Assembly: GCA_049999805.1 (NCBI GenBank) | Contig: JBNGIO010006274.1 | Span: forward strand, 81,818-145,817 | Direction of reading: 5' to 3' | DNA: 64,000 bases | From: Folioceros fuciformis | Lineage: Eukaryota | In this document: in pieces, positions 19,114 through 62,664 of the stretch | Layout of the letters: every line of letters starts with the position of its first letter | Numbering within the stretch: position 1 is the stretch's first letter | Notes under the pieces: generated by a model | The model's input: only the letters and a program-made list of their open reading frames with translations | Told to the model about the DNA's origin: nothing | Database searches by the model: none | Translations under genes and position numbers: made by a program

Positions 19114-20875
19114 TGCTCGTTGGTATCAGAGCATAGGTTGAAGCATCCTTGACTAGTACGCTAGTTAACGATAGCAGATCCTGCTGAGCCAAGCAGAGCA
19201 GAGAGGGTACGCCGCAGGAAGGATAAGGCCCCGCTTACCGAAGCCGTTGTGGAAGAGCCACAGGCGGATCCTCAAGTCGTGAGAACGACGGAGGAAGGAA
19301 CTTCGGAGCAAAGGACCGGTACCACCATAGAGGACCAGCTCCAAAAAATCATGAGGAGACTTGATGCTCTAGATCAAGAGATCAAAGGCAAACGTAGGCT
19401 CATTGAAGAAGAGCCAGAAGAAGTGGAGCCAGAGCCTGAGATCAGTGCTCCTAAGAACGCAAAGAAGTTGAGATTGAGTGTTCCTACGCCTAAGAGTTAC
19501 AAAGGTGAGCGTGACGTAGAGAAAATCAAATCTTGGTTTTTCTCTTTGGAAGCATACTTGGAATCATGTGGAGTGCCGCAAGACGAGTACTTGAAGCGCG
19601 TCACGTACTTCTTGGACGAGTATGCTCTTACTTGGTGGAGGACTTACGTAAAGAACGTAAGGCAAGGCAATCATAGAGCAACAATCTTCACATGGGCAGA
19701 CTTCAAGGAAGCGCTGCAACTCCGTTTCCAACCAGCTAATGCTGCGAGTTTGGCGCGAAGGATGCTCGACAATGTCAAGCATACTGGAACTTTGTGGGAG
19801 TATGTGAGTGAATTCAGCTCTATTGTCTTGCAATGTCCTGAGATGCATGAGCAGGACAAACTCCACAAGTTTACTACTGGCCTTAAGAGATGGGCTCAAA
19901 ACAGGATTGCATTGACTAATCCTCATACTTGCAAAAGGCTATGGCAGCAGCAGATGCCATACCGGACGTGTTTGTCTAGGAGGCTCCAATCTTGAGGGGG
20001 AGATATCCTAGATCTCAGGGTAGATCTAGAGGCAGAGGACGAGCCACCACCACTGGGAACAGTGCAACTACTCAGACTACTGCCAGAAGTCGGGGTAGAG
20101 GTGATAACAGGAGTCTTGGAAGACGACGTGCAGCGCCTACCTCTGGTGTATGTTATAGTTGTGGAGAGCAGGGACATTTTGCTAGAAACTGTCCACATGC
20201 ACAAGCTCTCAATTTGAATCTAGTGGCTGCAAATCCACCTGCTCCTAGAGCCAGGATCCAAGAGCTCCCTGAAGAGTCTAGGTGACGCCAAGGGCCACAT
20301 GTTGTGAGGACATGTGGTGAGTCATCAAGTATCAAGGATGACATTATTTCTAAGGAGGGTGGAGACTTGATGTATATTTGTGGCAAGATCAATGGCTTGG
20401 ATATTGAGCTATTGTTAGATTCTGCAGCCACCCATAATTTTGTGACTCCACATAAGGCAAGAGAGCTTGGCCTTGATTGGACTGAAACTTCCACGCCACA
20501 TAGAATCAAGTAAGCTAAAAGAACTCTGCAATTTCTGGGTGAATTGCATGGAGTAAAGCTGCAAGTTGATGCGTGGCAAGGAAGTTTGAGTTTTACAGTC
20601 GTGGAGATGGATAACCATGATATCATCCTAGGTCTGGAGTGGTTGAGATCTAATGAAGTGCAAATGGATGTTAAGTCACGCACTATCGAGATATCCAAAA
20701 AGCACAAAGTGAGTTGTGCTAGCAGTAACCAGAGGCTTGAGAGCGTATCAGTACAGCTGATTACAAACAGAGAGCTCAAGAAAGACCTCAGGAAAAAGAA
20801 GGAGTTATACTTGCTTGTACTCCAAGGACTAGAGGATGGTCTGGAAGAAGATTCCATAGAGGAGAAGGACATCCC

Positions 20876-21168
20876 TGTTGAGTTATCGAGCTCTATATGA
20901 GCTAAACTCATGTGGTGTTAGTTATCCCAGTTGGGTTCATACTAGACTAGTTCTAGTTATTAGTGAACTTAGGATAGTGTAGATTATCCCATATTGAACC
21001 TGGAAGTTGTGTAGCCCTAAATGTACTACTTAAATGGAGACCTCGGACCTCCATAGTAAGACAGTGGTGATGTGTATTGTTTTCATGATTGTGATCACCA
21101 ATACCACCCTCTCTTCTCTCCTCTCCTCTCCTACACTTGCACGTAGATTGGAGTCGATCCTATTGACA
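20876..21168. mobile_element. Solo LTR (293 bp, TG...CA) inserted in gypsy pol
   Basis: Flanked by a perfect 5-bp TSD ATCCC (20871-75 and 21169-73). Removing it restores the reading frame [21 protein letters not shown]. Confidence 0.9.
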
Positions 21169-24036
21169 ATCCCAAAAGAAGTACAAGCTGTACTAGATGA
21201 GTTCAAGGACTTGATGCCAGATGAGTTGCCACCATTTTCGTCTCACAGAGTTGTGGATCATGAAATTGAGTTGAGGCCAGGGAGTACACCTCCTTCAAGA
21301 GCACCATATAGACTGCCACAAGACGAGTTGCAAGAACTCAAACGACAACTATCCAACCTATTGGCAAAGGGATATGTTAGAGTTTCTAAGTCTCCCTTTG
21401 GTGCGCCTGTGTTATTCACGCGCAAAAAGAATGGAGGACTTAGATTGTGTCTGGATTACAGAGCTTTGAACCAGATCACAATCAAGAATGCATATCCTTT
21501 GCCGAGAATGGACGATATGTTTGATAGGTTGAAGGGTGCCAAGTATTTTACCAAGCTAGACCTGATGGCAGGGTACTATCAGGTCAGGATTGCTGAGGGG
21601 CATGAGTACAAAACAGCATGTAGAACAAGGTATGGATCGTTTGAGTTCCTTGTCATGCTATTTGGACTTACTAACGCACCTGCCACATTTCAGACTCTTA
21701 TGAATACTATATTCATAGATCTGGTGGACAAGTGTGTTGTAATCTATCTGGATGACATTTTGATCTATAGTCATATCTTGGAGGAACATGTTGAACACTT
21801 GAGGAAAGTGTTATAGAGACTAAGAGAGAATTCTTTGTTCTTGGCAATCAAGAAGTGTGACTTTGTCAAGACAGAAATTTCATTCTTAGGTTTCATTGTC
21901 TCTGCCAAGGGCATCAAGATGGATCTTGATAAAGTTAAGGCCATTCAAGATTGGCAGCCCCCTCGAAATATTCATGAGGTGCGAAGTTTTATGGGTTTAG
22001 CTTCTGTGTATAGGAAGTTTGTACATATGTTTGCTAAGATAGCAGCTCCCATAACTGACCTCTTGAAGACAGCAAAAGCTTAGAAATGGGATGCTGAGTG
22101 TCAAGCAGCCTTTGAATGCTTGAAGAAGAAGTTGAGCACGACTCCGGTGTTGGGAATGTATGACCCCAAGAGAGATGTGGAAGTGTATTGTGATGCCTCA
22201 GATATGGCTATAGGTGGAGTTTTGATGCAGGACCAAAAGCCGTTAGCTTTTGAGTCAAGGAAGTTGCATCCTTATGAGAGGAAGTATCCCACCTATGAGA
22301 AGGAAATGACTGCTGTCATTCACTGTATGAAGGCTTGGAGACACTATCTCTTGGGTAGGTCTTTTGTGCTGTATACTGATAATATCAGCACGACGTACTT
22401 CTCAAACCAGTTGAAGTTGAATGCAAGGCAAGCTAGATGGCAAGATTTCCTAGCTATATATGACGTGACTCTAAGATATAAACCTGGAAAAGAGAATAAG
22501 GTTGCAGATGCGCTGAGCCGCAAGCAGAGTCAAGACGTGAAAGCAATGGCAACTATGATTGAACCTTTGGATGCTCACAAAGAGATAAAAGAAGCTTATC
22601 TGCAAGATCCTGAAGTGCAGGACTGGATGAATGGGGTGGCAGAGAAAGGAAGCAAGTTCAAACTCAGAGATGGTTTGTTGATATACAAACAGAAGAGAGT
22701 TGTGATCCCTAACTCTGTAGGCTTGAAGAGGAAATTTTTTGCTGAGTGTCATGATGTGCCAAGTGCTGGTCACCGTGGAGGTGATTCAACTTATGAGAAG
22801 TTGAAGAGACTGTTCTATTGGCAAGGAGTGTATCAAGATACATTGGATTATGTCAAGGCATGTGTTGTTTGTCAGTAGGATAAGGTTGAGCAGGCTAAGC
22901 CGAGAGGTTTATTACAGCCCCTACCTATCCCAAGAGGCCCATGGAAAAGTATTTCTATGGACTTCATCATGCCCTTGCCTCCCGGTAATGGATTTACAGC
23001 TATCATGACAGTGGTGGATAGATTCACCAGACAAGCACACTTCATCCCCGCCAAGAAGCGAGTGACCGCTTCTTAGGCAGCAAACTTGTTCAAAAAGTAT
23101 GTGTACAAGTATCATGGCTTGCCCATGCAGATTGTGAGCGATAGAGATCCAAGATTCGCAAGAGAGTTCTGGCAGCACTTGATGAAGAGTTTGAATGTGC
23201 AACTATGCATGAGTACTACATACCATCCAGATACTGATGGATTAACTGAGCGAGTCAACCGAATCCAAGAAGAATATTTGAGGCACTATGTGCAGATTGA
23301 TCAGAGAGATTGGGCTGATCATCTTGATGATGCGGAGTTTTGTTACAATAACACAGTACATAGCTCCCTGGGATGTAGTCCCTTTGAGATGAGTGGAAAT
23401 TCAGCTGTGGATGTGGTATCCATGCTAAATGCTGAAGTTTTCGACACTACCACTGGAGATCCACGCCAATTTGTTGAGCAATTGAAGGTTAGGCATGAGG
23501 TTGCCCAAAAGATATTAGCCAAGGCTCAAGCACGTCAAAAGAGATATGCTGATAAGCACAGGAGAGAAACTGTCTTCAATGTTGGGGATAAAGTTTGGGT
23601 GAAACTGAAGCATTTCACACTACCCCAAGGATTGTCTTTAAAGTTGAGACCAAAGTATGGAGGTCCATATGTTGTCTTGAAGCGCATTGGAGAAGTGGCT
23701 TACAAGTTGGACTTGCCTGATTGGATTTTTGCACACAATGTGTTTCATGTATCTATGTTGAAACCATTTGTGCTAGGCAAAGAGAAAGATGATATAGACA
23801 GGAAGAAGTACAGTATCATGGTGCAGCATGATCAAGGACTACGGGAGATTGAGGAATTCCTTGCATAAGGTAGCGTGGCTACGAGACGTAGAACTCTACC
23901 ACAGTATATGGTAAAGTTGCGTGGGATCTCAACACCAGTTTGGGTAACATTAGAGGATATCCAGAGAGGCTCCTGGATGATTGCTCGTTACACTGGTTAT
24001 CACTGAGGGCAGTGATTCTTTCCTAGTGGGGGAGGA

Positions 24037-42025: not shown

Positions 42026-45000
42026 CAGTCAAACCCCTCTAATTGGAACCCCTATAAATGGAACACCCGAGCTTACTCCCTTGAATGTGCTACATGCTAA
42101 ATGGGAAACCCCTTCTAATTTGTAATTGGGAACATGTCTCGCAAACATTCAATGCAAGTACACCTCTGTAAAAGGAAAAATACATATTAAAAAATTTTGA
42201 AGAAATCGTCTTATCGAGATTAAATCATGAGTTATTGAGATTATGTCAGGTTAAAGGCTATCGAGATTATATCATAAAACATAGACAGTCATCGAGATTG
42301 GGCCTATATATGTAGTAGTTCTGTACACTATGCTATGATCATATTGTTCCTAGTACATAAGTTGTTTCGTTGTACAAGTTGTCTTATGGTGTTCTAAGTT
42401 GTGTTATGGTGTTGTAAGTTGTTGTCTTGCTATGAGATATTTTGTATGTGTTTCTTAGCCATTCTCTTTAACGTGTAGGAATAATGCCGCCAAAGCTGCC
42501 ACACAAGCATGCTACCCTAACAAAGCAACAAAAGAAAGAGGTTTGCGAATATTATGTCCAACACTCTTGCACACTTAAGGAGTTTGACTAGATGGACAAC
42601 AGAGAAGTTTTCAATAGCGGCTTCTAAAAGTGCATTGTCTAGGATTGTGAATGACAAAGACAAATAGTTGGACCTTGCCATTGGTCCAACAACTAATCTT
42701 GCAGGAATGAGGGATAGAGTAGTCGTATGCCCACAGATTGACCACGCAATGCACGTTTGGGCTCTTGCAATCCAACCTCAAGGTGCCACAATTTCAAATG
42801 ACTTGCTTCGTGAGTGCATCAAGTTGTATCGTGACTATCAAGCAATGATTATGCTGGTAAAAGGTTGGACATCATTTGTGAGTCCTCATACCATACGCAA
42901 TTATTGGAGGCATAGCACTTTGGATGCAAAATTGCGTGCACAAGATTCTCGGTTCCGCGAGTCTTTAGATCTAAACAGCGCACCATATGATTCAGAGGAT
43001 CAATTGTCGCATCCTCAAAATTACTCTAATTCGTTGGAAACGCAGTAAAAGAGCTACAACAGTCCATACGAAGCTTAGCATTATTAACATCTGAGGATAT
43101 GACAGGAATTGCTGATGTTGGATATCCAACGATGACAGCTGAAGAGTATATGAACTTTGAGGAGGATGAAAAATTGAAGACTACGTATATTCCTATAGAG
43201 GACGAAATATGGCAAGCATTAATCCCTCCACCTGTCAATGAGGAGGGTGAGGAGAATGATACAGCATCAGTGGAGACCATAATGCCAAGACCGTGTACGA
43301 CAAAGGATGTTGTAGATAATGCAGTTAGAAGTGGTAGCAGTCCACTTGAGTTATGTAACCTTAGGTATAGATAGCTTAGCAAAGTAACTGTTGGATTAGT
43401 TAGCGGAGTGGTGACCACAATCGTGCACATCACCCGTGTGGAGGTCATTCAGATGAGATTCGAAGAGAAACAACAGCTTGCAAAGGAGGCGCGCCCTTGA
43501 ATCAGCAGATCTCGCCCACAAATTCAGGCGGGATATCTCCAAAATTTCAGGACACTACCACAAATTCAGGCGGTGCGCCCTTCCAATTTCAGGCTGCGAC
43601 TGCTGATTTGGGAGGCGCATCTGCAATTAGGGGAGTCGCGCCTCCTCTGCTGGAGAGCACGCCAATCAAAGAACTGATCGCGCGCTCTGATCCGGCTCCA
43701 ATTCCCAGCGCGACTGTCAATTTTAGAGGCGCCTGTCCAGATCCTGCTTGGGCGTCCCCTAATTTCCAGCGTGCGCCTGTTCATCAGCGAAGGGCGCTTG
43801 CTTCAAGCGATGCTCGTCCATATCTAAAGGAAGGGCATGCTCTGAATTCAGGTGTTCTTTCTGATCACAGCAGCGCGCCAGTGGTGGTAGGAGTAACCAC
43901 CTCACGCACGGGAGGAGCGCCCCAAGCACCGGCCCTGGCGAAGAAAAACCTCGTCAACTTCTTGCTATGCGGTGCGTGCCCCCGGCATCCACTTTAAAAA
44001 TTCAAGCACCTTCTACAACGGTGGCAGTTCATATTAAGGAGGAACCAGTTTCTCCCCCGTCCCCCTTTGAGACCCTCCAAGCTGCTTATAAGGATTATAA
44101 GGACCACGAGACCCAAGCACAAGCTTCATCTTTTGAGAAACGTTCTCACCATTATCTGAAACTTTGGGAGTCTATCACTAACTTAGTCAACGAAGTTAAA
44201 ACTGTTTGTCGTATGGAGTCCAGTTCTGATTAGGGATCTCAAGTACCTATATTTATATATATCCATAAATTATCTTGTGCTCTTTATATTGATGTTTATC
44301 CTAAGCCTTGTGTTATAACACTTTGCTTGCTTAAATATCTATTCAAGACACAAATAACATTATGCCAGGAACGAGTACCCCCATGTCGATGACTACTCCC
44401 TCAATTGCACTAGTGATAAATGTGATGAACGTATCAACTGATTTCAAAGAAAAAGACCTTTTTAACGGTACAAAGTATGAAGTCTGGTCTCGACGAATGA
44501 AAACAGCCTTGAATACATGAGATTTGCTTTCTATCGTGAAAGGAACTTCCCCCAAGCCTCTGGCACCTCAATCGGCTGTCGAAGCTTGGTTAAAACTTGA
44601 TTGTCAAGCCATGCATATGTTAATATCTAGTCTTGACGAGACTACGTTACACCATACCGATGGTGCAACTACAGTAGCAGAAGCGTGGAAGCAGATAAAT
44701 GATATTTATCAATCCACCAATGTGATGACCCTGGTCACTGTGCGCCAAGAGCTCTATACTCTTCATATGCAACCAGGCGATAGTATTGCCCACCATGTGA
44801 GTCGTTTTCGTTACCTCCGGGCACAATTGGCTGCACTAGGCACTACTATGTTTGAGTTTGATGCTATTGTACAATTGCTGGCTAGTCTTCCGGCTAGCTA
44901 TCAATCTTTTGTCTCTTCACACAACCAGTCGGTCCGTAACTCTCAGCGAGCATTGGCGGCTGGTGGTCAATCGACACTTAATGTGTCCAAGATTGCTGGG

Positions 45001-48000
45001 GCGCTCCTACAAGAGGAGGATTCTCGCTATAATACTAGCACATCTAAGCATGGTGATGAGCGAGTGATGTTCGTGACACGAGGGCGGTCTCAACATCAGC
45101 CTAAGAGAAGAGACAATCCCACAAAGCGGATGACTTCTAACAGTCACCCAAAATCTGCTTCTTCTGCCTCTACCTCCAAGACCCAGAAGCGACAAGGCAC
45201 TTGTAACTGGTCTCAAATTCCGGGCCATTGGGAGAGGGAGTGCAGCAAGAAGCAAGCTGGTGAGGCTAAGAGGGAGCCCAAGTCCACTAATACGGCTGTT
45301 CTTCCTAAGGCCAAGACTCAGACTAAACCAGAGATTGCTCTTACAGTGTGCCTCGTTGCATCGGCTCTAAAGACATCGTGGCTCATTGACTCCGCAGCTA
45401 CTGCTCATATTTGCAATTCCAAGCATATGTTTACTACCTATGCGGCGTCACCTGATCCTCTCCGGTATGTCCTATTAGGAGATGACTCTGGGCTTGCCAT
45501 ACACGGCATATGGAATGTGACCTTCACATTAGAAGACAAATCCACCCTTCTGCTGACGAATGTACTTCATGTTCCGCAAATGGCCAAGAACCTTATCTCC
45601 GTATGACACCTTATGCACGATGGTCTTTATAAACTAGAGTTTGGCAAAGAGAACTGTCTACTCTATCGATCCTCCAAGCCCCATCAAGTGGTAGCACGAG
45701 GACATCTCCAGAGTGATCTCTATATATTCTCCGGCACCCTTGTGTATTCTTCTAGTGCTGTCGCTGTGGATACTACCAAGGATGCACCACAAGCTAGGCA
45801 CCAGTCCTTCGGGCCAGCCTTCTTATGGCACTGTAGGCTTTGGCATCTTAACTCTGCCAAGTTACTTGTCATGTCCATGCAGGATCTCTATCGTGACAAG
45901 CTTCCTGCCTTGGCCAAGACTCCACCATTCTATGAAGCCTATGTGTTGGCCAAGCAGCGAAGTGCACCTTACTCTAGTCTTCCTGCTCACAGGGCGTCTC
46001 AACCCTTGGAAATAGTTCACATTGATTTGTGTGGACCTCTTCCTGTCACTTTTTTAGGCGGAGCCCACCATTTTATGACAATCGTAGATGATTATTCTCA
46101 TTATTCTTTTGTGTATCCGCTCCGTCTTAAGAGTGACTCCTTTGGTGTGTTCCAACCCTTTGTCTCGATGGCCGAGCTGCACACTAGGTGTAAGCTGCGG
46201 TGCATTCGTTCTGACAATGCAGGGGAACTCAACAATTGGCTCTTCCAAGCATTCTGTGAAGAACGAGGGATTACCCGGCAATTCTCGGTTCCCTACACTT
46301 CTGCTCAAAATGGCGTTGCGGAGAAGGCCAATGGCAATCTTCTTGCCATGGCCAGGGCTATGCTAGCCCAGTCTCATCTGCCGAAGTCTTTTGGGCTGAG
46401 GCCATTTCCACCGCTACTTATATAAAGAACCGGCTTCTTACACAGGCAGTAGCTAGCCGTACTCCTTTTGAATGCTGGTTTGGTTACAAGCCACTTATTT
46501 CCCATCTTCGGGTTTTTGGCTCTCTCGCCTATGCCTATGTCCCTTCCCCACTACGCGACAAGCTTTCTTCTTGAGCGTGGAAACTTGTGTTTGTTGGCTA
46601 CGGGGAGGCCCGCAAGGCTTATAAGCTAGTTGATCCTCACTCTCATACTCCAGTCTATGCACGAATGGTTACTTTTGATGAAGGTTATGTTCTGTCTCAT
46701 GGACCCATTCTTGATGGTGACAAGGATAACCGCTCTCCGCCAAGTAGTCCTCGTCCTCTTGACGATGTCCATGTCTCCTTTGACCTCCCTTCTTCCTCAT
46801 TTCCTAATGGTTCTATACTATTGGATCCTTCATCACTAGCAACTCCGGCTTCTCCGGTTTCTACTCGAGGGGGGGAAGATGAAGATGAAGGCTCCATGGG
46901 TACTACTCAAGATATGGATCTTCCTCATGATATACCTACAGCAGATGCTCACATTTCGTCTCAGAGGACAGATGCTAGTACACCTAAGCGAAAGTATCCT
47001 TCACATCAGAGACAGCCAAGACATTTGTGGGGTGAAAATCCTTTTGATCTAGAATTTAATCAAGTTGGTTATATTGGGGTCTATCCCACTGTGTATTCTC
47101 TTGCTACTAGCTCTCCTCTTTCAGAGGGAGATCCTCTCACACTTAGAGAAGCATATTCAAGACCAGACGCTGATAAGTGGAAATTAGCTATTGACGATGA
47201 ATACAACTCTCTAGTCAAAAATAACACTTGGCAATTAGTGGATCTTCCTGCAGGTAGGATTACAGTCAAGTGTAAGTGGGTACTAAAAACCAAATTTCAA
47301 GAGGTGGAACCCCGGATAAGATACAAAGCAAGGTTAGTGGCCATGGGTTAAAGTCAGCAAGAGGGAGTAGACTATCAGGGTGACCAGGGTTACTCTCCTG
47401 TTGTCAAAGCAGCATCTATTAGGATGCTTCTGGCTCTTTGTGTTGAACTCAACCTTACCATCTATCAATTAGATGTCTGCACAGCCTTTTTGTATGGTCA
47501 TTTAGAAGAAGAAATCTATATGGATCAGCCTGAGGACTATGAGGATAAGAAACATCCTTATAAGGTGTGTAAACTTCTTCGTACTATATATGGGCTCAAA
47601 CAAAGCCTACGACTATGGTACAAGCAAATTGATACATACCTCAAGAAGATTGGCTTTGTACAATGTGAGTCAGATACCAATCTCTATGTACTACGAAAGG
47701 ACAGTTCAATTGTATTAATAGCACTTGGTCATTCTAGGCAACAATGTGGAGCTGGTTAACCAAATTAAGGCAGATCTCAGTAAAGAGTTTGAAATGAAAG
47801 ACCTTGGTCAAGTAAAGTATATTCTTGGAATGCATGTACATAAAGATAGATCCACTGGAGCTATCTATCTTCATCAGGGGAGATATGTAGCATGGATGTT
47901 GAAGAAGTTTAATCTAGAAAATGCACGAGCAGCAGCCACTCTAGGTGCCGTTGGTGTCAAGCTGTCTTCGTCATTCTGTCCGCAGTCTGAAGAGGATAAG

Positions 48001-49675
48001 AAGGAAATGGAGAGTGTGCCATATCGAATGGCAGTAGGAACACTCATGTTTCTTAGCAATTGGACCAGACTAGACATATCTAACACTATGAATGCAGTTG
48101 CTCAATTCTCTGAGAATCCAGGAAGAGACCACTGGGTTGCAGTCAAAAGAATAATGCGATACCTAAAGGGTAGGAACACTCATGTTTCTTAGCAATCGGC
48201 CCATACCAAACATATCTAACACTGTGAATGCAGTTGCTCAATTCTCTGAGAATCCAAGAAGAGACCACTGGGTTGTAGTCAAAAGAATAATGCGATACCT
48301 AAAGGGTACTCCTAATTATGGTCTCTGCTACAAACCCAGCGGGAAGAAGCATTTATAACTCAGTTGTTACGTAGACGCTGATTGGGCTTCTAATGCTGAT
48401 ACCCGCAAAAGTCTTTCGGCATATTGTTTCCTTGCTGGTTCCACAGTGATAAATTGGTCCTGTAGGAAACAAGCCTCTATTTCTCTATCTTCTACTGAGT
48501 CAGAGTATAAAGCATTGACAGAAGCTACGAAGGAGGCTGAGTGGGAAAGGAAATTATGCAAGGATTTGGGAATGCATCAGAAGGGACCCACTATTCTTAA
48601 TAGTGATAGTATGTCAGCCATTGCCTTGGTGGCTAATCTTGTGTTTCATGCCCGCACTAAGCACATCGAGATACAACATCATTATGTTAGGGATGCTGCT
48701 GAGAGGGGCTTAGTAAAGATACAGTATGTGCCTACAGATCTTAACATGGCTGATGTCTTGACAAAGTCACTTCCTAAGTTCAGACATTGTTTTCATAGGA
48801 AAGGACTTGGTCTAGTAGACTGTAGTAGTTTTGGCTCTCAGAAAAATTTGAAGACGTGGTGAAGATATCCCTTCTGACCCCATCAAGTGCAAGGATAACT
48901 GAAACTGGAGTATTACTTCTGTTCTGGTCATGACTAGTGCGCTACTATAACGGTTGTCGTCTGCGGCAGACTTCTTGACAGTGTTAGCGACTGCAAGATT
49001 TGACAGCCGAGCTGAAGTAGATAGCTTACAGTAACAGACTTTCACAAGTACTGATCTCTATAAGAGCTCTCATAACTCTAACGTGACTGAGAGGGAGAGT
49101 TAGAAGTGGTAGCAGTCCACTTGAGTTATGTAACCTTAGGTATAGATAGTTTAGCAAAGTAACTGTTGGGTTAGTTAGCTAGGCTAATGAAAGGACACAC
49201 CCTTTAGGATGGTACCTATAAAAAGACAATTAAGTGTACTTCTAAATCATTCTTATTTTAAACTTTTGTGTAGAAGACACACTTTCGCATGTAGTCTTCC
49301 AACTAATGCTATGAGGATAACGAAGATGTTTTTGGAAGAGATGCCACATAACACTCTTTTGATGCTTTGAAGTTGCATTCTCAGTTCGAAAAACATATTG
49401 CTAGTCATTGGATGAAAGCAACTCAACATCAATCAAGGATTGATGATTATTTTAACCCAACAAACTAGAATTAGCTTGACAAGTATGTAGTATGAGGGAG
49501 CATTTTGGATTTTTTGGAAGCTTTTAAGCTCTTTCGAATTTTTGATTTAAAAGATTTTATGACTTTTTAAATATTTTTGTGTTCAAAAAAAGATGAAAAT
49601 GCCTAAATGCGAACCCCTCTAAAATGGGACAAGTTTTGCTACTCCCAATTGTTCCCAATTAGAGGGGTCTGACTG
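42026..49675 (+). mobile_element. pogo/Tigger-like Tc1-mariner DNA transposon, internally deleted, interrupted by copia
   Basis: TIRs CAGTCAAACCCCTCTAATTGGAAC and (rc) CAGTCAGACCCCTCTAATTGGGAAC, with a TA TSD on both sides. Transposase relic: MPPKLPHKHATLTKQQKKEVC (HTH), IDHAMHVWA..GATISNDLLRE (CENP-B-like), KGWTSFVSPHTIRNYWRH, MTAEEYMNFE, C-terminus QSRIDDYF. Confidence 0.88.
43323..49304 (+). mobile_element. Ty1/copia LTR retrotransposon, decayed, 5' LTR truncated
   Basis: Domain order is gag (from ~44362), protease WLIDSAATAHIC, integrase (VHIDLCGP, IRSDNAGE, QNGVAEK), RT (YKARLVA, YGLKQS), RNase H (YVDADWA, RTKHIEIQHHYVRD). PPT at 49089-97; 3' LTR 49098-49304; 5' LTR remnant 43323-43404; perfect TSD AATGC. 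Confidence 0.95.
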
Positions 49676-56760: not shown

Positions 56761-57262
56761 TTTTTAGCAGCCCAGCCTTTCGGATGTAGGAAGATAGGAG
56801 TAGGCGGTTAGAAGATCCACAACGACAAAAAAACAACAGTCATGGCGGTTGAGAAAGGAAGCGATGTTTCCCGGAAAGGAAAGTTGGTAGTGTAAGAGCT
56901 ACGATATAAAGTCTTGCCATTGCTAGGTACGTATGCACCAACCCAGTGCATTTATAGGGAGTGCATGGCAGAGGTAGGTGTTGGCGGAAAAGGCAGCCGG
57001 GCCAGCCGTCCAGCCCACCCCTGCACAACCGCAATCGTCGTGTGGAAGGAAGAAAGAATAACCGTCACTCTATTCCGTTGAAAGGTTCCAATTTTTCCTT
57101 TAACGTGACATCCAAGCCATAAGGGTTGGTCTGGACGACGCAGGTTAGGAAAGGAGGAACGGTACGAGGGGCCGTCTATGGAAAGGGCAGCGGAAGGTCA
57201 GGAATGAGCAGAAGCATGAGGAAGGTGGAGCGGGAGTGAAGCATGAGTGATCGGACCAGTGC

Positions 57263-59109
57263 ATGAGCATGTCTGGCAGTGGAGACATCGTAGAGTGGGA
57301 GTGGAGCAGCGATGATCAGCACTGGATTGCCTACAGTGCCTCCTGCAGCTCCCTGATAGAGGAAGCGTATGCCGCGGGCTTCTCCAGTGTGCCGCTCTGT
57401 CTCTCGTCCAATCCATCCACCTCCCACACCATCATCTTTGAGGGCCTCCCGCAGCGACAGGTCTCCTTCTTCCCTTTGCCCTTGCGCCCACCTCTTGCTC
57501 CGCTGCTGGCTTCGCCTTCCGTTGGCTGGCTTGTCGGACCTGCTTGTTTGTCGGCTGGGCTCAGGTGAACGTGCGGACGCTGCGGTCGAGGCCCGTAAGG
57601 CGCCAGGTTCTGGGCGGTGGCCCTGTCGGGCAGCGGGTGTCGTGGGAGTGGTGGGAGGTTGAGAGAGGGACGTGGACGCCTTACGCTGCAGCTGCCGCCT
57701 CGCAGATAGAGGCAGCCTGGGCTGAGTGCAGCAGCAGCAGGGCGTGCAACCGAGCCAACGGGCCCTCTGGGCTGCTCTTGTGCATCAGGAATCACTGGTA
57801 CACTATCGAGTTTGAAACTGACGCTCGGCAGTGCAACAATTCCACCATGTTTTGTAGAGGAGTGAGGAGGAGGGCAGTTTCTCAGCCAGCTGCGCCTGCG
57901 GCTTCCCGAGCTTGCAGGTTTACCCTGCCTTGGACCCGATCACGGACCGCGCGAGATCCCGCTGCCCAGGGCCAGCAGGAGGCGCAAGCTACTCAGGAAA
58001 GCCATCCCATTCCCAGTCTAATTCCCATTACCGGTCTAGTTCCCGTTACAGTGCCCGCTCCCGTGCATCTGGGCCAGGTGAATAGTCCATCCCTTAACGA
58101 AGAGTACTTCATTCCCTTCCCGGATTGCAATGAATCCGACGACTGCCCTATCTGCATCTGCAGCCTCACTGCATGGGAGGCAGTGAAGCTTTCCAAGTGC
58201 AGGCACGCGTACCACAGGGCATGCATCCAGCAGTGGTTTAGGAGCAAGCCCACTTGTCCTGAGTGTGCCACCCCTCATGGGGTCATATTGGGTACTCAGC
58301 CAGCAGGAGAGATGAAAGTGCGATATGTTACTCGAGAAAGCGAGGGTGGTCTTTCGGGGTATCCTCATACTGACGTCATCGAGATCAGCTATTACTTTCC
58401 CAGTGGAATTCAGGTATGCATCCTACCCGGAAATAGGGCTTGTACTCTGACGCAGGTCCCTACTTTGTGTGTGGAGTGGAGTGGAGGTCTTCATATTGTG
58501 TTGTGGTCCCGTGGTGGAGGCAGACAGATGAACACCCCAACCCAGGCCGGGCATACACGGGCACCAGGAGAGTTGCGTACTTGCCCAAGAACAAAGACGG
58601 GGAGGATATCTTGGACCTACTCAAAACAGCATGGCAGCGAAAGCTACTCTTTACAGTAGGAACATCTGTGACCACTGGACGACAAAACCAAGTAATGTAT
58701 GTAGCTGTGTCAACTCTTTTGCTTAAACGCCAAAAACACAGCCAACCTCATGTGACGAGACGGAGCTCCTCAATGATACGTTGCTGTGCCTCTGTGCCTT
58801 TGTGTATCTCCTTTGTGTACTGACTGGCTGTCTCCTCTTTAGCTGGGCTGGGATCCATCACAAAACAAACAAACAAGGAGGGGCCGAGTATTACGGCTAT
58901 GTGAGTCACACACTCGGGGACTTTCCGCCCCTGGTGACCTAAACATGCTGTCAGACTGGGCTTCTGTCGTCCTCCTTTTTCGTTAGGAGGAACAGAACCC
59001 GTACGTAGTTGGAACTCACACCATCTGCTGTCGATGTTTGCAGCCTGACGACACTTACTTCGCTCGAGTCCGAAGTGAGCTGGCAGCAGTGGGCGTAACC
59101 TCGTTGTGA
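57263..59109 (+). CDS. DTX: Deltex-family E3 ubiquitin ligase (WWE-WWE-RING-H2-DTC), 5 exons
   Basis: Exons 57263-57460, 57565-58413, 58524-58696, 58843-58900 and 59044-59109 splice in frame through GT-AG introns. Two WWE repeats (VEWEWSSD..WIAY..IEEAY; VSWEWWE..WTPY..IEAAW), RING CPIC..CRHAYHRAC..CPEC, and DTC motifs GTQPAGEM, FPSGIQ.DEHPNPG, RVAYLP, LLFTVGTSVTTG, VIWAGIHHKT, YGYPDDTYFARVRSELAAVGV. Confidence 0.93.
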
Positions 59110-59669
59110 GAGGCGCGGCAAGAAATACTTAGCAGGGGTGCCACCAAGTGTTTAAATTTTCAGAAGCAGAGCTTGGAGAACTTCGATATTGTACATTGTT
59201 TTCTTCAAATGAATTTAATAATAGCAGAGCGGAATAAGTTGTGTGACTGTATTGCATTCGGTTTGGGTGTTATGTCGATGCCGATGCCGATGCGATTGCC
59301 TCCCTCACTCATCGAATCGAGTGTGTTCGCGGGATCACGTGGGTGCGCCATTCCAAAGGTGGTGGTCAGCAGGCTTCTCATGCACGCATGTAGGTTCACG
59401 TACAACTTGCTTCGTCCTTGCGCGTAGTTATCACGTGGTCGGGATGTGGCCCAGATCTGGACCTCATTTCAAAGTACATGTGTTTCATAATGGCACGTCT
59501 CTGGGGTCAGATGGGTACGAGGACAGACCTCGTTTCTCTCGATGTGATGGATGGACACTCTCTTGGAGCTAGTCTGAATTCTATGATACTCTGTTCTCTT
59601 TTGTGAAGTTGATTGTTCAAGCTTGTTTATATTTTATATTATTAACAATATTTCCTCCTTTGTCATCAC

Positions 59670-59674
59670 GGGGG

Positions 59675-59720
<46 letters not shown>

Positions 59721-59742
59721 GGATCGAAACCCGGCGTCTCCA
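59670..59742 (+). tRNA. trnA-UGC: tRNA-Ala (anticodon TGC)
   Basis: 73-nt cloverleaf GGGGGTGTAGCTCAATTGGTAGAGCGCGCGCTTTGCATGCGCGAGGTACCGGGATCGAAACCCGGCGTCTCCA, with the G3:U70 Ala identity pair and discriminator A. Confidence 0.93.
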
Positions 59743-60540
59743 CATCTTGGTCCTCTTAAAATTTTGGGTTTCAGAGTAATCCAAAATTACGGCTTATGCG
59801 CTTGGGGTAGATGGACTTAACACCGGGGTTATGTGCTTTCTGGTGGTTGGACTTGGGGGAGATTCCATCTACCCCAATTAGGATAGGGTACAAGCCCTAG
59901 ATTTCTAGATTTCAAGCCTTGTGGGTAAAGGAGACAACTAAAACCACATATAGGATTAAAAAAAGATAGTTTATAGCACAAGCATAGATTACCCCCTTTT
60001 TTTCTTATCACACCCCTAGTGATAAGAAAAAGGAGAAAAAAGAATATAAAGAATAGTAGCATATTGGGGGAGTGAAATGATTTTAGTCACAGTCATCCCC
60101 TATGTTATGTTATGGCCACTTTTATCCTAAAGTTGTAGGATTACATATTTAGTTCACGCCCTGTATGCTCCAAAGGATTTCCACGTTTTGATGCTTGAAT
60201 CGACCGACAGGTTGATGCGTGGCTGACGAAACGGATGGTTGTCGGTCTACAATAAGCCCTTCGACGAGCTGACGTGAGCCCCGCAGCAGGAACGGATTTT
60301 ACAGTCAATGGGGATTGCAGGTGGTAATATAATAAGATGCCCCGACATTGCAAGACGCAAAGTCACAGGCAGAGGACTGCATCAACAGACAGCACGAGGC
60401 TCAGCAAATTAGTGAGCAAAGCTGGGAGACAAACGGCTCGCAGTGGCTGGCCAGGGCACAATTCCGCTCCAATGGGAGCCAATCATGCTGAAAGCATACT
60501 AGGCCAAAGCGAAGGCTGCCGAGGGTGAAGTAAATTAACA

Positions 60541-62157
60541 TCAGGTGGAGATGATCCGCACGTCTGGCACATGGACAGGGAAGTTGTGTATGCAGGCAGC
60601 CCACGGGCCAGTTTTGGGAGGCTGAATGGTCCGAAGGGCCCGCCATACCGAACTGTTGCACTTGAAGCCACTACCGAAGGCGATCTGCCACACCCTGTCC
60701 CCGCGCCGAACTCGTCCCTTGGCCTCCGTGTAGGCCAGCTCGTACCAGATGGAGGAGGAGGACGTGTTACCGAACCTGTACAGCGTCATCCGGGAGGCCT
60801 CCACGTGCTCCTTGGACAGCTGCAAGTTCTTCTCCAGCTCATCAATAACCGCCCGGCCGCCCGCGTGAATGCAGAAATGCTCGAAAGCGAGCTTGAAGTC
60901 CGGAATGTAAGGCTTGAGCTTGGCATTGAAGAGCTTCCTGGCAACCAGAGTCGCGAAGAAGAGGATCTGCTCCGAGAGCGGGAGCACTGGCGGTCCTAGA
61001 GTAGTGATGTTGGTCTTGAGCGCATCGCCGGCGATGGCCATAAGATCCTTGGACAGCGACACCCCGAGCTTTCCCTCCTCGTCCTCCTCCTGGTACACGC
61101 AGCGGAAGCACTTGGTATCGGCGCCCTTGTGCGTCCTCACCGTGTGCACCAGCTGGTACTTCGATCTCCGTCGGTCGGAGGCCTTGTTGGAGAGCAGAAT
61201 TGCAACGCCCCCAACCCGGAACAAGCAGTTGGGAATGAGCATGGAGCGGCGGTTCCCGAAGTACCAGTTCTGTGTGATGTTCTCCGTGCTCACCACAATG
61301 GCGTAGGTGCTCCTGTGCACTTGCAGCAAATCCTTGGCCAGATCCACAGAAATGACGTTGGCGCTGCACCCCATTCCCCCCAGATTGAAGCTTCGAATGT
61401 TGCCACGCATCCGATACTTGTTGACGATCATGGCCGAGAGCGAAGGTGTGGGATTGAAAAGGCTGCAATTCACCACCAGCACCCCCACGTCCTTGGGCGT
61501 CACCTTAGTCTGCGCGAAGAGCTGGTCCAGGGCCCCGAACATGACTGTCTCCGCCTCGGCGCGCGCCTCCGCCATATTGATGGTGACCGGCACGTTGTGC
61601 AGCCCCGGCGGCAGGTACGTCTCCTCGCTCAGCCCCGACCGCTCCAGGATCTTGCGCTGGAACTCCAGATTCTTGGGGTCGAAGAGACCCACCATCTCCG
61701 ATCGCTTGATGAAGAGGTTGAAGGGCACCTTGAGCTCGTCCGGCGGCAGGTAGCAGGCGTAGTCGACGTTGTACACGGGCCGCGCCCGCGACATGAAGTA
61801 CACCGTGCCCCCGAACACTAGCAATGCGGAGCAGCCCAGCACGCTCACCAAGTTGTATTGCAGCTTCACCCACAAACTCCACATCTCCTCCCTCCCAACC
61901 CGCGTCATCTCCAGCCCCACCCCCAGCACCAGCGGCACCACCAGCAGCGTCACCAGATGCGTGATCAGGTAGTGGTACCCCAATTTCACATATTTGAGAT
62001 TCACGGACTGCAGAAAATCCGGCAGCCGAGCCCTCCGCGTCCCGCCGCCGACACCGCCGCCATGGTGCCCATTTTCAATCCACGCATTCCCGTTCCCGTT
62101 CACCACCTCCGCCGTCTCCCTCTCCTTGTCTTTCTCCTGCACCCGCTCCTCCTCCAT
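60541..62157 (-). CDS. KCS: 3-ketoacyl-CoA synthase (FAE1-type very-long-chain fatty acid elongase), single exon, 538 aa
   Basis: [34 protein letters not shown], catalytic [43 protein letters not shown] and [12 protein letters not shown]. Confidence 0.98.
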
Positions 62158-62664
62158 CTCCGATGCTCCTCTTCACAACCCCCACCTCCTTCCTCGAATC
62201 CGCCCTGCTCTGCTCCACCTTTACCTTTCCTGCCCGGCTCTCAGCTCGGCTGAACTCAGCTCAGCTCAGCTCAGGGCTGGGAGCTCGGCTCCAGAAATGC
62301 ACAGGCACTAACTCCCGCAGCGAGCACCGCTGAGCTGCAGGCAGTTGAGCCCGTCAACAAGCCGGCTGACTGGAGAGAGGTGGTGGGAGCCCTGGCCTCA
62401 TCGACCTAGGTTTTCCTCACTGCCCAGTGCCAGCGCAGCAAGCCTGCCACGAACAGACTGCGATTCCCCTTCACTGCAGCACCTGCAGCATAGCCTGCCA
62501 CGATTCCAGTCGCCCGGGCAGCCTCCATTCGTCGTCACATGCTCTCCCTGCCTTCCTTCCCATGATTCGCGCTCATAACACCCGTGGCGGGGTGGTATAA
62601 CGCTCTCCTACTTTCCCCTCTACGTACGCCGCGCCGCACGGCAACCCCCCGGGCTGCGCCTGTT

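Follow-up and report, generated by a model that had tools for sequence, protein, structure and literature searches.

The window analysed here, a 64,000-nucleotide stretch of Folioceros fuciformis DNA, contains a gene that we read with good confidence as nuclear, intact and transcribed, and as belonging to a bryophyte-grade plant. Its product would be a RING E3 ligase with the layout of DTX1, DTX2 and DTX4, a member of an old streptophyte family with a predicted ADP-ribose-directed activity. That this is a spliced, expressed and genuine Deltex-family gene of the plant is close to certain, and what its domains, motifs and splice junctions show is far beyond chance.

Deltex ligases have been studied as animal enzymes, as regulators of Notch and, since 2020–2022, as proteins that bind and ubiquitylate ADP-ribose. 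In the accessible text of a 2009 survey, Deltex is scored as holozoan-specific (PMC2770060). A plant copy with relatives from streptophyte algae to conifers makes the module older than Holozoa, contrary to that scoring as far as the accessible text gives it. No paper describing a plant Deltex was found in the literature covered (main texts, few of them from subscription journals). What is new here is a member of an overlooked plant Deltex family that is already in the databases.

Gene structure, expression and locus

The coding sequence is on the + strand, join(57263..57460, 57565..58413, 58524..58696, 58843..58900, 59044..59109). Once spliced it comprises 1344 nt, with 447 codons for a protein of 447 residues and a sole stop, the terminal codon. 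Three sequencing runs bear on its expression. X3 is a probable RNA run (the label is a guess), DNA run X1 spans the whole stretch, and DNA run X4 covers it in parts. The features are as follows.

57178–57262, + strand: 5' leader, covered part only, starting at the first X3 contig match
57263–57460, + strand: exon 1, residues 1–66, with the start codon and most of the first WWE domain (WWE1, about 57293–57454)
57461–57564, + strand: intron 1, 104 nt, GT..AG, phase 0; joint 57460/57565 in an X3 contig, none in DNA run X1
57565–58413, + strand: exon 2, residues 67–349, with the end of WWE1, WWE2, a linker, the RING-H2 and the first DTC strands
57640–57870, + strand: WWE2, within exon 2
58144–58266, + strand: RING-H2 (C3H2C3), within exon 2, residues 260–300
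58291–58413, + strand: first DTC strands, within exon 2
58414–58523, + strand: intron 2, 110 nt, GT..AG, phase 0; joint 58413/58524 in X3
58524–58696, + strand: exon 3, residues 350–407 (last codon split), core of the DTC; R365 and S397/V398 belong to its predicted ADP-ribose diphosphate site
58697–58842, + strand: intron 3, 146 nt, GT..AG, phase 2; joint 58696/58843 in X3 at depth 156
58843–58900, + strand: exon 4, residues 407–426, with W408 (58844–58846), H412 of IHHKT (58856–58858) and Y424
58901–59043, + strand: intron 4, 143 nt, GT..AG, phase 0; joint 58900/59044 in X3
59044–59109, + strand: coding part of exon 5, residues 427–447 and the TGA stop (59107–59109); E438 is at 59077–59079
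59110–59247, + strand: 3' UTR, ending at the reach of the X3 transcript contig

A preliminary description of this DNA had claimed an intact five-exon reading frame at 57263..59109. This span begins exactly with the start codon and ends with the stop, all 447 codons are open, and the four introns are GT..AG without exception. The confirmation of the four junctions in RNA that it called for comes from X3, the probable RNA run, whose contigs carry every predicted splice joint (at least 99% identity, in four of four aligned contigs), while X1 has none of the four. Within the stretch, X3 leaves the four introns and the flanks uncovered, and one X3 contig (58667–58872, depth 52) retains intron 3. 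The 5' leader holds four short upstream ATG ORFs of 7–11 codons, with ATGs at 57178, 57204, 57216 and 57243. The GYPD motif is split by intron 4, G-Y ending exon 4 and P-D falling in exon 5.

Could the locus be foreign or misassembled? Contamination often accounts for animal-like genes in plant assemblies, and the window has five scaffold gaps (runs of 10 N). None of these gaps lies between the Deltex gene and the FAE1/KCS (3-ketoacyl-CoA synthase) gene 1.4 kb downstream of it (60541–62172, minus strand). Its identity to the closest KCS proteins of land plants is 77–82%, which bears out the land-plant host that had been supposed. A tRNA and plant-type LTR elements complete the flanks, and two LTR retroelements are on the same contig as the gene. 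A single X1 contig spans 57103–59300 with zero differences, X1 possibly being the source of the assembly DNA, and X3 and X4, runs from two other studies, match at ≥99%. The nearest relatives of the protein are themselves plant proteins. The Deltex gene is the host plant's own, and the chance that the locus is foreign or misassembled is negligible. Among the 13 neighbouring ORFs scanned, there were no genes for ADP-ribosylation partners.

Domains and the predicted ADP-ribose site

The Pfam scan covered the translations of exons 1, 2, 3 and 5, exon 4 (19 aa) being too short. Exon 1 matched WWE (E 7.5e-9), and exon 2 matched WWE (E 4.8e-8), zf-RING_2 (E 1.6e-10, residues 258–300) and DTC profile positions 2–38 (E 0.0033), the DTC beginning at residue 309. 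The strongest DTC match (PF18102) came from exon 3, at profile positions 40–95 (E 3.5e-22; 79.4 bits against a curated cut-off of 25), and exon 5 matched positions 116–133 (E 0.056). Exon 4, at about positions 96–115, aligns to DTX2 through the plant homologue P0122, which matches the RING-DTC of DTX1 and DTX2 at E ~1e-41. With phmmer, the exon-3 core matched DTX2 (6y22, 4.5e-15), DTX1 (3.3e-14) and DTX3L (3.9e-14). The RING directly precedes the DTC, forming a contiguous RING-DTC module, and its spacing, C-x2-C-x14-C-x-H-x2-H-x2-C-x10-C-x2-C, is of the RING-H2 type common to DTX1 and DTX2. The linker of about 90 aa between WWE2 and the RING, in exon 2, has no Pfam match and aligns poorly among homologues.

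The order WWE-WWE-RING-H2-DTC given in the preliminary description thus stands, with two WWE domains, the RING-H2 and the DTC all matched in the profile search it had proposed, and with its named motifs (IHHKT, GYPD and a terminal E-L...G-V) all located in the protein. To call this architecture 'metazoan-style' was an overstatement, since WWE and DTC also occur together in proteins of an amoebozoan and an apicomplexan, according to precomputed Pfam families.

The ADP-ribose contacts of DTX2 given in the available part of PMC7442474 are R535, S567, S568, W578, H582 and H594, and its catalytic pair, from the available part of PMC7615817, is H582 and E608. None of the six residue names searched for occurs in PMC7500938. 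These positions were mapped onto the window protein by the alignment of P0122 to 6y22 and by homologue alignments. Four of the six pocket residues are identical (R535 to R365, S567 to S397, W578 to W408 and H582 to H412). S568, a main-chain contact in DTX2, corresponds to V398, and H594 to Y424, so that the aromatic character is kept. E608 corresponds to E438, and the 26-residue gap between H412 and E438 is that between H582 and E608. As judged from these alignments, the putative ADP-ribose pocket and catalytic His-Glu pair of DTX2 are kept in the window protein, in agreement with the earlier assignment of the IHHKT His and a late Glu. Among plant homologues, all 17 that cover the H582 position have His there. 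Fifteen extend to the E608 position; 14 have Glu there, the exception being Cryptomeria P0271 with Gln. To judge by this conifer sequence, some plant copies may lack catalytic activity.

The RING and WWE residues are less uniform. The RING linchpin, K473 in DTX2, is Ala in the window protein (A301) and Leu in many plant homologues, a change that may weaken classical lysine ubiquitylation. The iso-ADP-ribose-contacting WWE pairs of DTX2 are Y75/Q84 and Y152/Q161, according to the accessible text of PMC11345397. WWE2 keeps the Tyr and the Gln in a weak alignment to the TRIP12 WWE. In a similarly weak alignment to Drosophila Deltex, WWE1 has His at the iso-ADPr-contacting Tyr of RNF146- and DTX-type WWE domains, so it may bind weakly or bind something else.

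Plant relatives and the origin of the family

The gene is no isolated case; it belongs to an old plant family that has been overlooked. A HMMER search of 1.84 billion representatives yielded nine proteins with E<=1e-30, and those with names come from Cryptomeria, Taxus and Ceratopteris. Further relatives are present in Mesotaenium, Coleochaete, Selaginella, Adiantum (two species), Pteridium and Psilotum. The WWE-WWE-RING-DTC layout is common to Ceratopteris (Ceratopteris richardii KP509_09G068000 and 09G067700 being among the homologues listed), Adiantum, Pteridium, Psilotum, Cryptomeria and Coleochaete (listed as Coleochaete scutata). In Cryptomeria japonica XP_057829841.2 there are four WWE domains, and Gln takes the place of the catalytic Glu. 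Shorter or partial forms occur in Mesotaenium (ME000587S08649, one WWE found), Taxus (Taxus chinensis KAH9317941.1, partial and without the first WWE) and Selaginella (XP_002960827.1, RING-DTC alone, 199 aa). The streptophyte homologues are 36–56% identical to the window protein and have in common with it the RING-DTC module and a W-A-G-I-H-H-K-T type motif. Over the RING-DTC, identity to the conifer-clade relative P0292, a JGI protein, reaches 65%. All of this has gone under automatic names such as 'uncharacterized', 'RING-type E3 ubiquitin transferase' and 'probable DTX3'.

The uniqueness implied by the preliminary description therefore does not hold, as the layout is already public for two conifer genera, which are seed plants, and for several ferns and streptophyte algae. 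It had also named wide occurrence and prior description in seed plants as the findings that would undo its reading. The architecture is indeed widespread in databases; no publication on it was found. Its statement that no such gene was known from Arabidopsis-type angiosperms agrees with the named plant matches, which include no angiosperm, moss or liverwort, in distribution data that are incomplete and do not prove absence from those groups: of the six sequences used as its query, the profile search recovered only two. A word-indexed search with exon 2 gave one match among 1335 candidates, which reflects the index limit and not rarity. A metagenome scan found 22 loci, of which six were examined by tblastn. 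One of these (L001) is intron-free and cDNA-like and is 46.6% identical over residues 10–447; the other five have different exon layouts and are probably not from plants.

How did the family reach this plant? The preliminary description had offered ancient retention or horizontal transfer. In a RING-DTC tree of 105 rows with SH-aLRT supports, the window protein lies inside an all-plant (embryophyte) clade of 17 rows (SH-aLRT 95), beside fern and conifer subclades. An AU test with all 21 streptophyte rows as one clade did not reject that grouping (p-AU 0.775), and the constrained 21-row plant tree had a log-likelihood 26.8 above the free quick search. Together, the embryophyte placement and the unrejected single plant clade favour old vertical retention over horizontal transfer, and of the two origins offered it is the first that finds support. 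Most likely, on these sequence comparisons, this is a streptophyte-wide family that was inherited vertically and patchily retained. With 43 of 102 inner branches open, the tree has no firm deep backbone, and an origin that is ancient in eukaryotes is inseparable from very old transfers between eukaryote groups.

Horizontal acquisition of the gene by this plant lineage, with an animal or protist as donor, could be read into the protein atlas, where only animal-dominated clusters appeared, including all of the nearest large ones; this is a lead and not evidence of plant absence. The holozoan-specific scoring in the accessible text of PMC2770060 and the lack of named mosses, liverworts and angiosperms among the matches point the same way. 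Such a transfer is nonetheless very unlikely. The window protein groups with ferns and conifers and not with animals. The AU test does not reject the single plant clade, in which a lycophyte and streptophyte algae are included, and the likelihood is better with it. In addition, the gene has four spliceosomal introns, and the gene models of its relatives break at two of the same positions. The ORF of the nearest relative, P0001, overruns the same ...GIQ point, at which intron 2 lies here, and continues with unrelated residues, suggesting that it too has an intron there. The Taxus model and one Ceratopteris database model stop exactly at the ...GY boundary, that of intron 4 here. Any transfer would have to predate land plants.

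Possible function and comparison with known systems

By analogy with human DTX2 work, we infer binding, catalysis, substrates and a physiological role. ADP-ribose units that plant PARPs have attached to proteins, and possibly to nucleic acids, would be recognised by both WWE domains and by the pocket of the DTC, and the RING-H2 would recruit a ubiquitin-charged E2. H412 and E438 of the DTC would then activate the adenine-proximal ribose at its 3' hydroxyl. The outcome would be ubiquitin esterified onto ADP-ribose (a hybrid ADPr-Ub mark), ubiquitylation of nearby lysines, or both. On this analogy we lean towards the window protein performing ADP-ribose-directed ubiquitylation, and signalling of DNA damage or stress may be proposed as its role.

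Two other readings of the protein need to be weighed. It may be a conventional lysine-directed RING E3 whose WWE and DTC domains serve only to bring it to its partners, PARylated or otherwise, with ADP-ribose not ubiquitylated. The role of DTC and WWE in ADPr binding and recruitment was the first to be shown for DTX2, in the portions of PMC7442474 and PMC11345397 that are accessible, and sequence alone contains no proof of hydroxyl catalysis. Set against this are the conserved His-Glu pair at the exact DTX2 spacing, a pair that DTX2 requires specifically when it ubiquitylates a hydroxyl, according to the available part of PMC7615817, its near-complete retention among the plant homologues and the missing linchpin that would aid lysine transfer. 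We regard the lysine-directed reading as unlikely. Alternatively, the gene may be decaying, transcribed yet not needed. The patchy distribution implies repeated loss, the WWE1 Tyr is gone, and intron 3 is retained in one contig. This is scarcely credible for a frame that is open across five exons, with pocket and catalytic residues conserved and a RING-DTC that has stayed so similar to that of conifer-clade P0292 after what was presumably a very long divergence.

An intact Deltex gene in this lineage, with its conserved pocket and its relatives, raises the possibility that PARP signalling is coupled to ubiquitin in some plants in animal fashion. More broadly, and tentatively, at a little short of an even chance, the coupling of ADP-ribosylation to ubiquitylation by Deltex, including the ADPr-ubiquitin ester, would predate animals, be active downstream of PARPs in non-flowering streptophytes (streptophyte algae, the window's bryophyte-grade plant, lycophytes, ferns and conifers) and have been lost toward flowering plants. 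Do plants form ADPr-ubiquitin marks? The question is now testable, and transformable non-seed plants could be used. The importance of the finding is limited because homologues are already public and because the model angiosperms, the subject of most plant PARP work, show no named homologue here.

Among known proteins, the WWE proteins described in the plant literature are RCD1/SRO, which have WWE, PARP-like and RST domains and no RING or DTC, as far as the accessible text of PMC2848248 goes. Membership of that group is ruled out, there being no PARP or RST match at E<=1 on the scanned exons 1, 2, 3 and 5. The PAR-dependent RING E3 RNF146/Iduna is alike in its logic, recognition of iso-ADP-ribose by a WWE guiding the ligase, as described in the accessible parts of PMC7615817 and PMC11345397. 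Unlike the window protein, it has one WWE, no DTC and no His-Glu hydroxyl-activating site, and the second WWE and the DTC rule out RNF146-type membership. The best solved match to the tandem WWE is that of Drosophila Deltex (2A90; WWE1 E 7.1e-6, WWE2 E 6.4e-6), at low identity.

The closest likeness is to human DTX1, DTX2 and DTX4 (structures 6Y22, 6Y3J and 6Y5N), which have the same order of tandem WWE, RING-H2 and DTC. The window protein keeps the R, S, W and H of the DTX2 ADPr contacts together with the catalytic His-Glu, and differs from DTX2 in the changes of H594 to Tyr, S568 to Val and linchpin K473 to Ala, and of the WWE1 Tyr to His. At 447 aa it is shorter than the vertebrate DTX2 proteins returned by the profile search (542–763 aa). 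We know of no Notch receptor in plants, and the Notch-binding role of DTX is therefore inapplicable. Should Deltex coupling prove to be older than animals and still at work in plants, the ancestral job of Deltex could be seen there free of Notch.

Gene structure and transcription

The candidate Deltex gene was modelled by reading 56800-59600, listing the stop-to-stop frames and joining the exons by script. Five in-frame pieces on the + strand make up 1344 nt, or 447 codons, with the sole stop at the very end:

57263-57460, + strand: exon 1, in-frame piece
57565-58413, + strand: exon 2, in-frame piece
58524-58696, + strand: exon 3, in-frame piece
58843-58900, + strand: exon 4, in-frame piece of 19 aa
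59044-59109, + strand: exon 5, in-frame piece ending with the stop

The introns, of 104, 110, 146 and 143 nt, are GT..AG in all four cases. The preliminary description had reported a Deltex gene at 57263..59109, which runs exactly from start codon through stop codon, and it was right as to the five-exon frame and the domains.

The gene region is present, whole or in part, in four public runs (three studies, one organism), and contigs from three of these were aligned on 57100-59300. The DNA sequencing run X1, from which the assembly may derive, has a single contig across the stretch with zero differences and zero splice joints. The contigs of X3, a run designated RNA only by an automated guess, jump exactly 57461-57564, 58414-58523, 58697-58842 and 58901-59043, each GT..AG, and together reach from 57178 to 59247. 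Since these contigs are intron-free and missing from X1, they are best explained as mRNA, and all four splice junctions are therefore confirmed independently of the gene model.

One X3 contig (58667-58872, + strand) retains intron 3, at a depth of 52 versus 156 for the spliced form. Retention would close the frame upstream of the IHHKT motif; possible sources of the contig are pre-mRNA, regulated intron retention and DNA carry-over. Within the 5' leader, as far as transcript contigs reach (57178-57262, + strand), there are four upstream ATGs, whose ORFs measure 7-11 codons. The contig at 57178 also bears 30 extra letters unlike the window, which could be an upstream 5' exon or an assembly chimera.

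Genomic neighbourhood and host

Four further features were located in the window:

19165-23868, + strand: LTR retrotransposon, Ty3/gypsy-type, with gag, RVT_1 and integrase-like frames
44521-48862, + strand: LTR retrotransposon, Ty1/copia-type, with gag_pre-integrs, rve and RVT_2
59670-59743, + strand: tRNA-Ala, anticodon TGC (Rfam 59.9 bits, and ARAGORN)
60541-62172, - strand: FAE1/KCS (3-ketoacyl-CoA synthase), 543-codon intron-free frame (Pfam 7.7e-139)

Both retrotransposon bodies contain long open frames. About 560 nt separate the Deltex stop codon from the tRNA gene that follows it, and the KCS frame sits 1.4 kb downstream of the Deltex gene on the opposite strand. The best KCS matches are from land plants: a Logan protein at 82%, Calypogeia at 80%, Marchantia at 79%, Riccia at 78% and Adiantum at 77%. 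In a tree of 32 rows the window and Logan proteins come out as a lineage of their own (SH-aLRT 99), placed inside none of the groups sampled: liverworts (97), mosses (99) or vascular plants (84). By this placement the host is a land plant of bryophyte grade. It may be a hornwort or some other bryophyte with poor sampling, a suggestion drawn from one gene.

Relatives and origin of the gene

A HMMER search of 1.84 billion representatives with exon 2 returned 3576 hits at E<=1e-3, of which 120 reach <=1e-10 and 9 reach <=1e-30. Exact look-up of top matches (30 proteins) named the conifers Cryptomeria japonica (614 aa) and Taxus chinensis (partial), the ferns Ceratopteris richardii, Pteridium aquilinum and Psilotum nudum, and also Mesotaenium endlicherianum, Coleochaete scutata and Selaginella moellendorffii, the last a RING-DTC protein of 199 aa with one entry auto-named 'probable DTX3'. 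The remaining top matches come from Logan, JGI or ENA. When 22 top hits were scanned with Pfam, WWE, RING and DTC occurred together in the Logan protein P0122, the Cryptomeria-cluster representative (four WWE stretches), Mesotaenium (one), Coleochaete (two) and others. The same layout occurs in several protist groups.

Against a 5.8-billion set, a six-sequence plant profile yielded 65 hits at E<=1e-10, in a search that was incomplete, since it recovered just two of the six sequences behind the query. Thirteen plant-like proteins scored 6e-199 to 4e-130, among them proteins of two Adiantum species and another Ceratopteris paralogue, followed by a gap until 2e-77, where vertebrate DTX2 and DTX3L start along with amphioxus, the apicomplexan Besnoitia (WWE and DTC), a ciliate and an amoebozoan. 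No angiosperm, moss or liverwort is among the named plant hits, though their proteomes sit in the same database, which suggests, but does not prove, absence there. In the protein atlas no large plant-dominated Deltex cluster appears, a lead only. Five metagenome proteins among the profile hits (P0343-P0347) carry a PARP catalytic domain (PF00644), RING and DTC in one chain, so that an ADP-ribose writer is joined to the Deltex module; their place in the tree is beside the animal DTX2 group.

One paper terms Deltex holozoan-specific, with WWE plus RING as diagnostic (PMC2770060), and another mentions KEGG 'Deltex' among transcripts of brown-alga gametes (PMC3879662). No description of a plant Deltex was found in the literature covered, which takes in few subscription journals. 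The framing as a unique metazoan-style gene in a plant was overstated. The gene belongs to an unstudied family, already in databases, with a range from streptophyte algae to conifers.

Was this gene retained from ancient times, or was it acquired by transfer, as the preliminary description alternatively proposed? A RING-DTC tree was built from 135 proteins covering at least 85% of the module, less 30 near-duplicates removed by hand (105 rows). The window protein falls in a plants-only clade of 17 rows (SH-aLRT 95), within which one subclade unites the named ferns (99) and a second the named conifers (94). A separate group (88) comprises Mesotaenium, P0135 (a EukProt transcriptome protein) and Selaginella, and the tree gives no resolution for the placement of Coleochaete or the deep backbone. 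A single clade for all 21 plant rows was not rejected by the AU test (p-AU 0.775), and the tree so constrained was 26.8 log-likelihood units above the quick free search. The nearest relative, database protein P0001, shares 58% identity with the window protein across 254 aligned residues inside exon 2, and its ORF turns non-homologous exactly past ...GIQ, where window intron 2 starts. Similarly, the gene model of Taxus and one of those from Ceratopteris break off exactly at ...GY, the start of intron 4. These coincidences hint that intron positions 2 and 4 may be shared with the relatives. Taken together, the plant clade, the AU test and the intron hints favour old vertical inheritance with losses; recent transfer from an animal is unsupported.

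Domains and comparison with animal Deltex proteins

Translations of four of the five exons were scanned with Pfam, exon 4 being under the minimum length. Exon 1 contains a WWE (E 7.5e-9). Exon 2 carries another WWE (4.8e-8), a RING recognised as zf-RING_2 (1.6e-10) and the beginning of the DTC profile, as far as position 38. Exon 3 covers DTC positions 40-95 and scores 79.4 bits, where the curated cut-off is 25 (3.5e-22), and exon 5 adds positions 116-133.

According to PMC7442474, the ADP-ribose contacts of DTX2 are R535, S567, S568, W578, H582 and H594. The window protein was aligned with plant homologues and the mapping verified by index; DTX2 numbering is the chain index plus 387 in the DTX2 alignments, which reproduces every named residue.

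Residues of human DTX2 and their counterparts in the window protein
R535: R365, identical
S567: S397, identical
S568: V398, main-chain contact in DTX2
W578: W408, identical
H582: H412, catalytic His
H594: Y424, aromatic kept
E608: E438, catalytic Glu
K473: A301, linchpin position

By this mapping the ADP-ribose pocket and catalytic pair are predicted to be intact. In weak alignments WWE2 keeps the Tyr/Gln pair, the residues mutated in DTX2 according to PMC11345397, and WWE1 has His for Tyr. The functional reading of the preliminary description is reasonable. Judged by residue conservation, WWE and DTC would read ADP-ribose, and E2~Ub would discharge onto an ADP-ribose hydroxyl via H412 and E438.

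The Cryptomeria japonica protein P0271 has four WWE and a Gln at the catalytic Glu position (DTX2 E608). Because E608Q in DTX2 strongly lowers ADP-ribose ubiquitylation, this copy may, by analogy, only bind.

Among proteins with solved structures, exon 3 finds DTX2, DTX1 and DTX3L by sequence at 4.5e-15 to 3.9e-14, and the best match for both WWE is the Drosophila Deltex tandem WWE (2a90, about 7e-6). With the Pfam hits and the C3H2C3 spacing of the RING (aa 260-300), these matches establish the WWE-WWE-RING-H2-DTC architecture as real, with a RING of the type common to DTX1 and DTX2.
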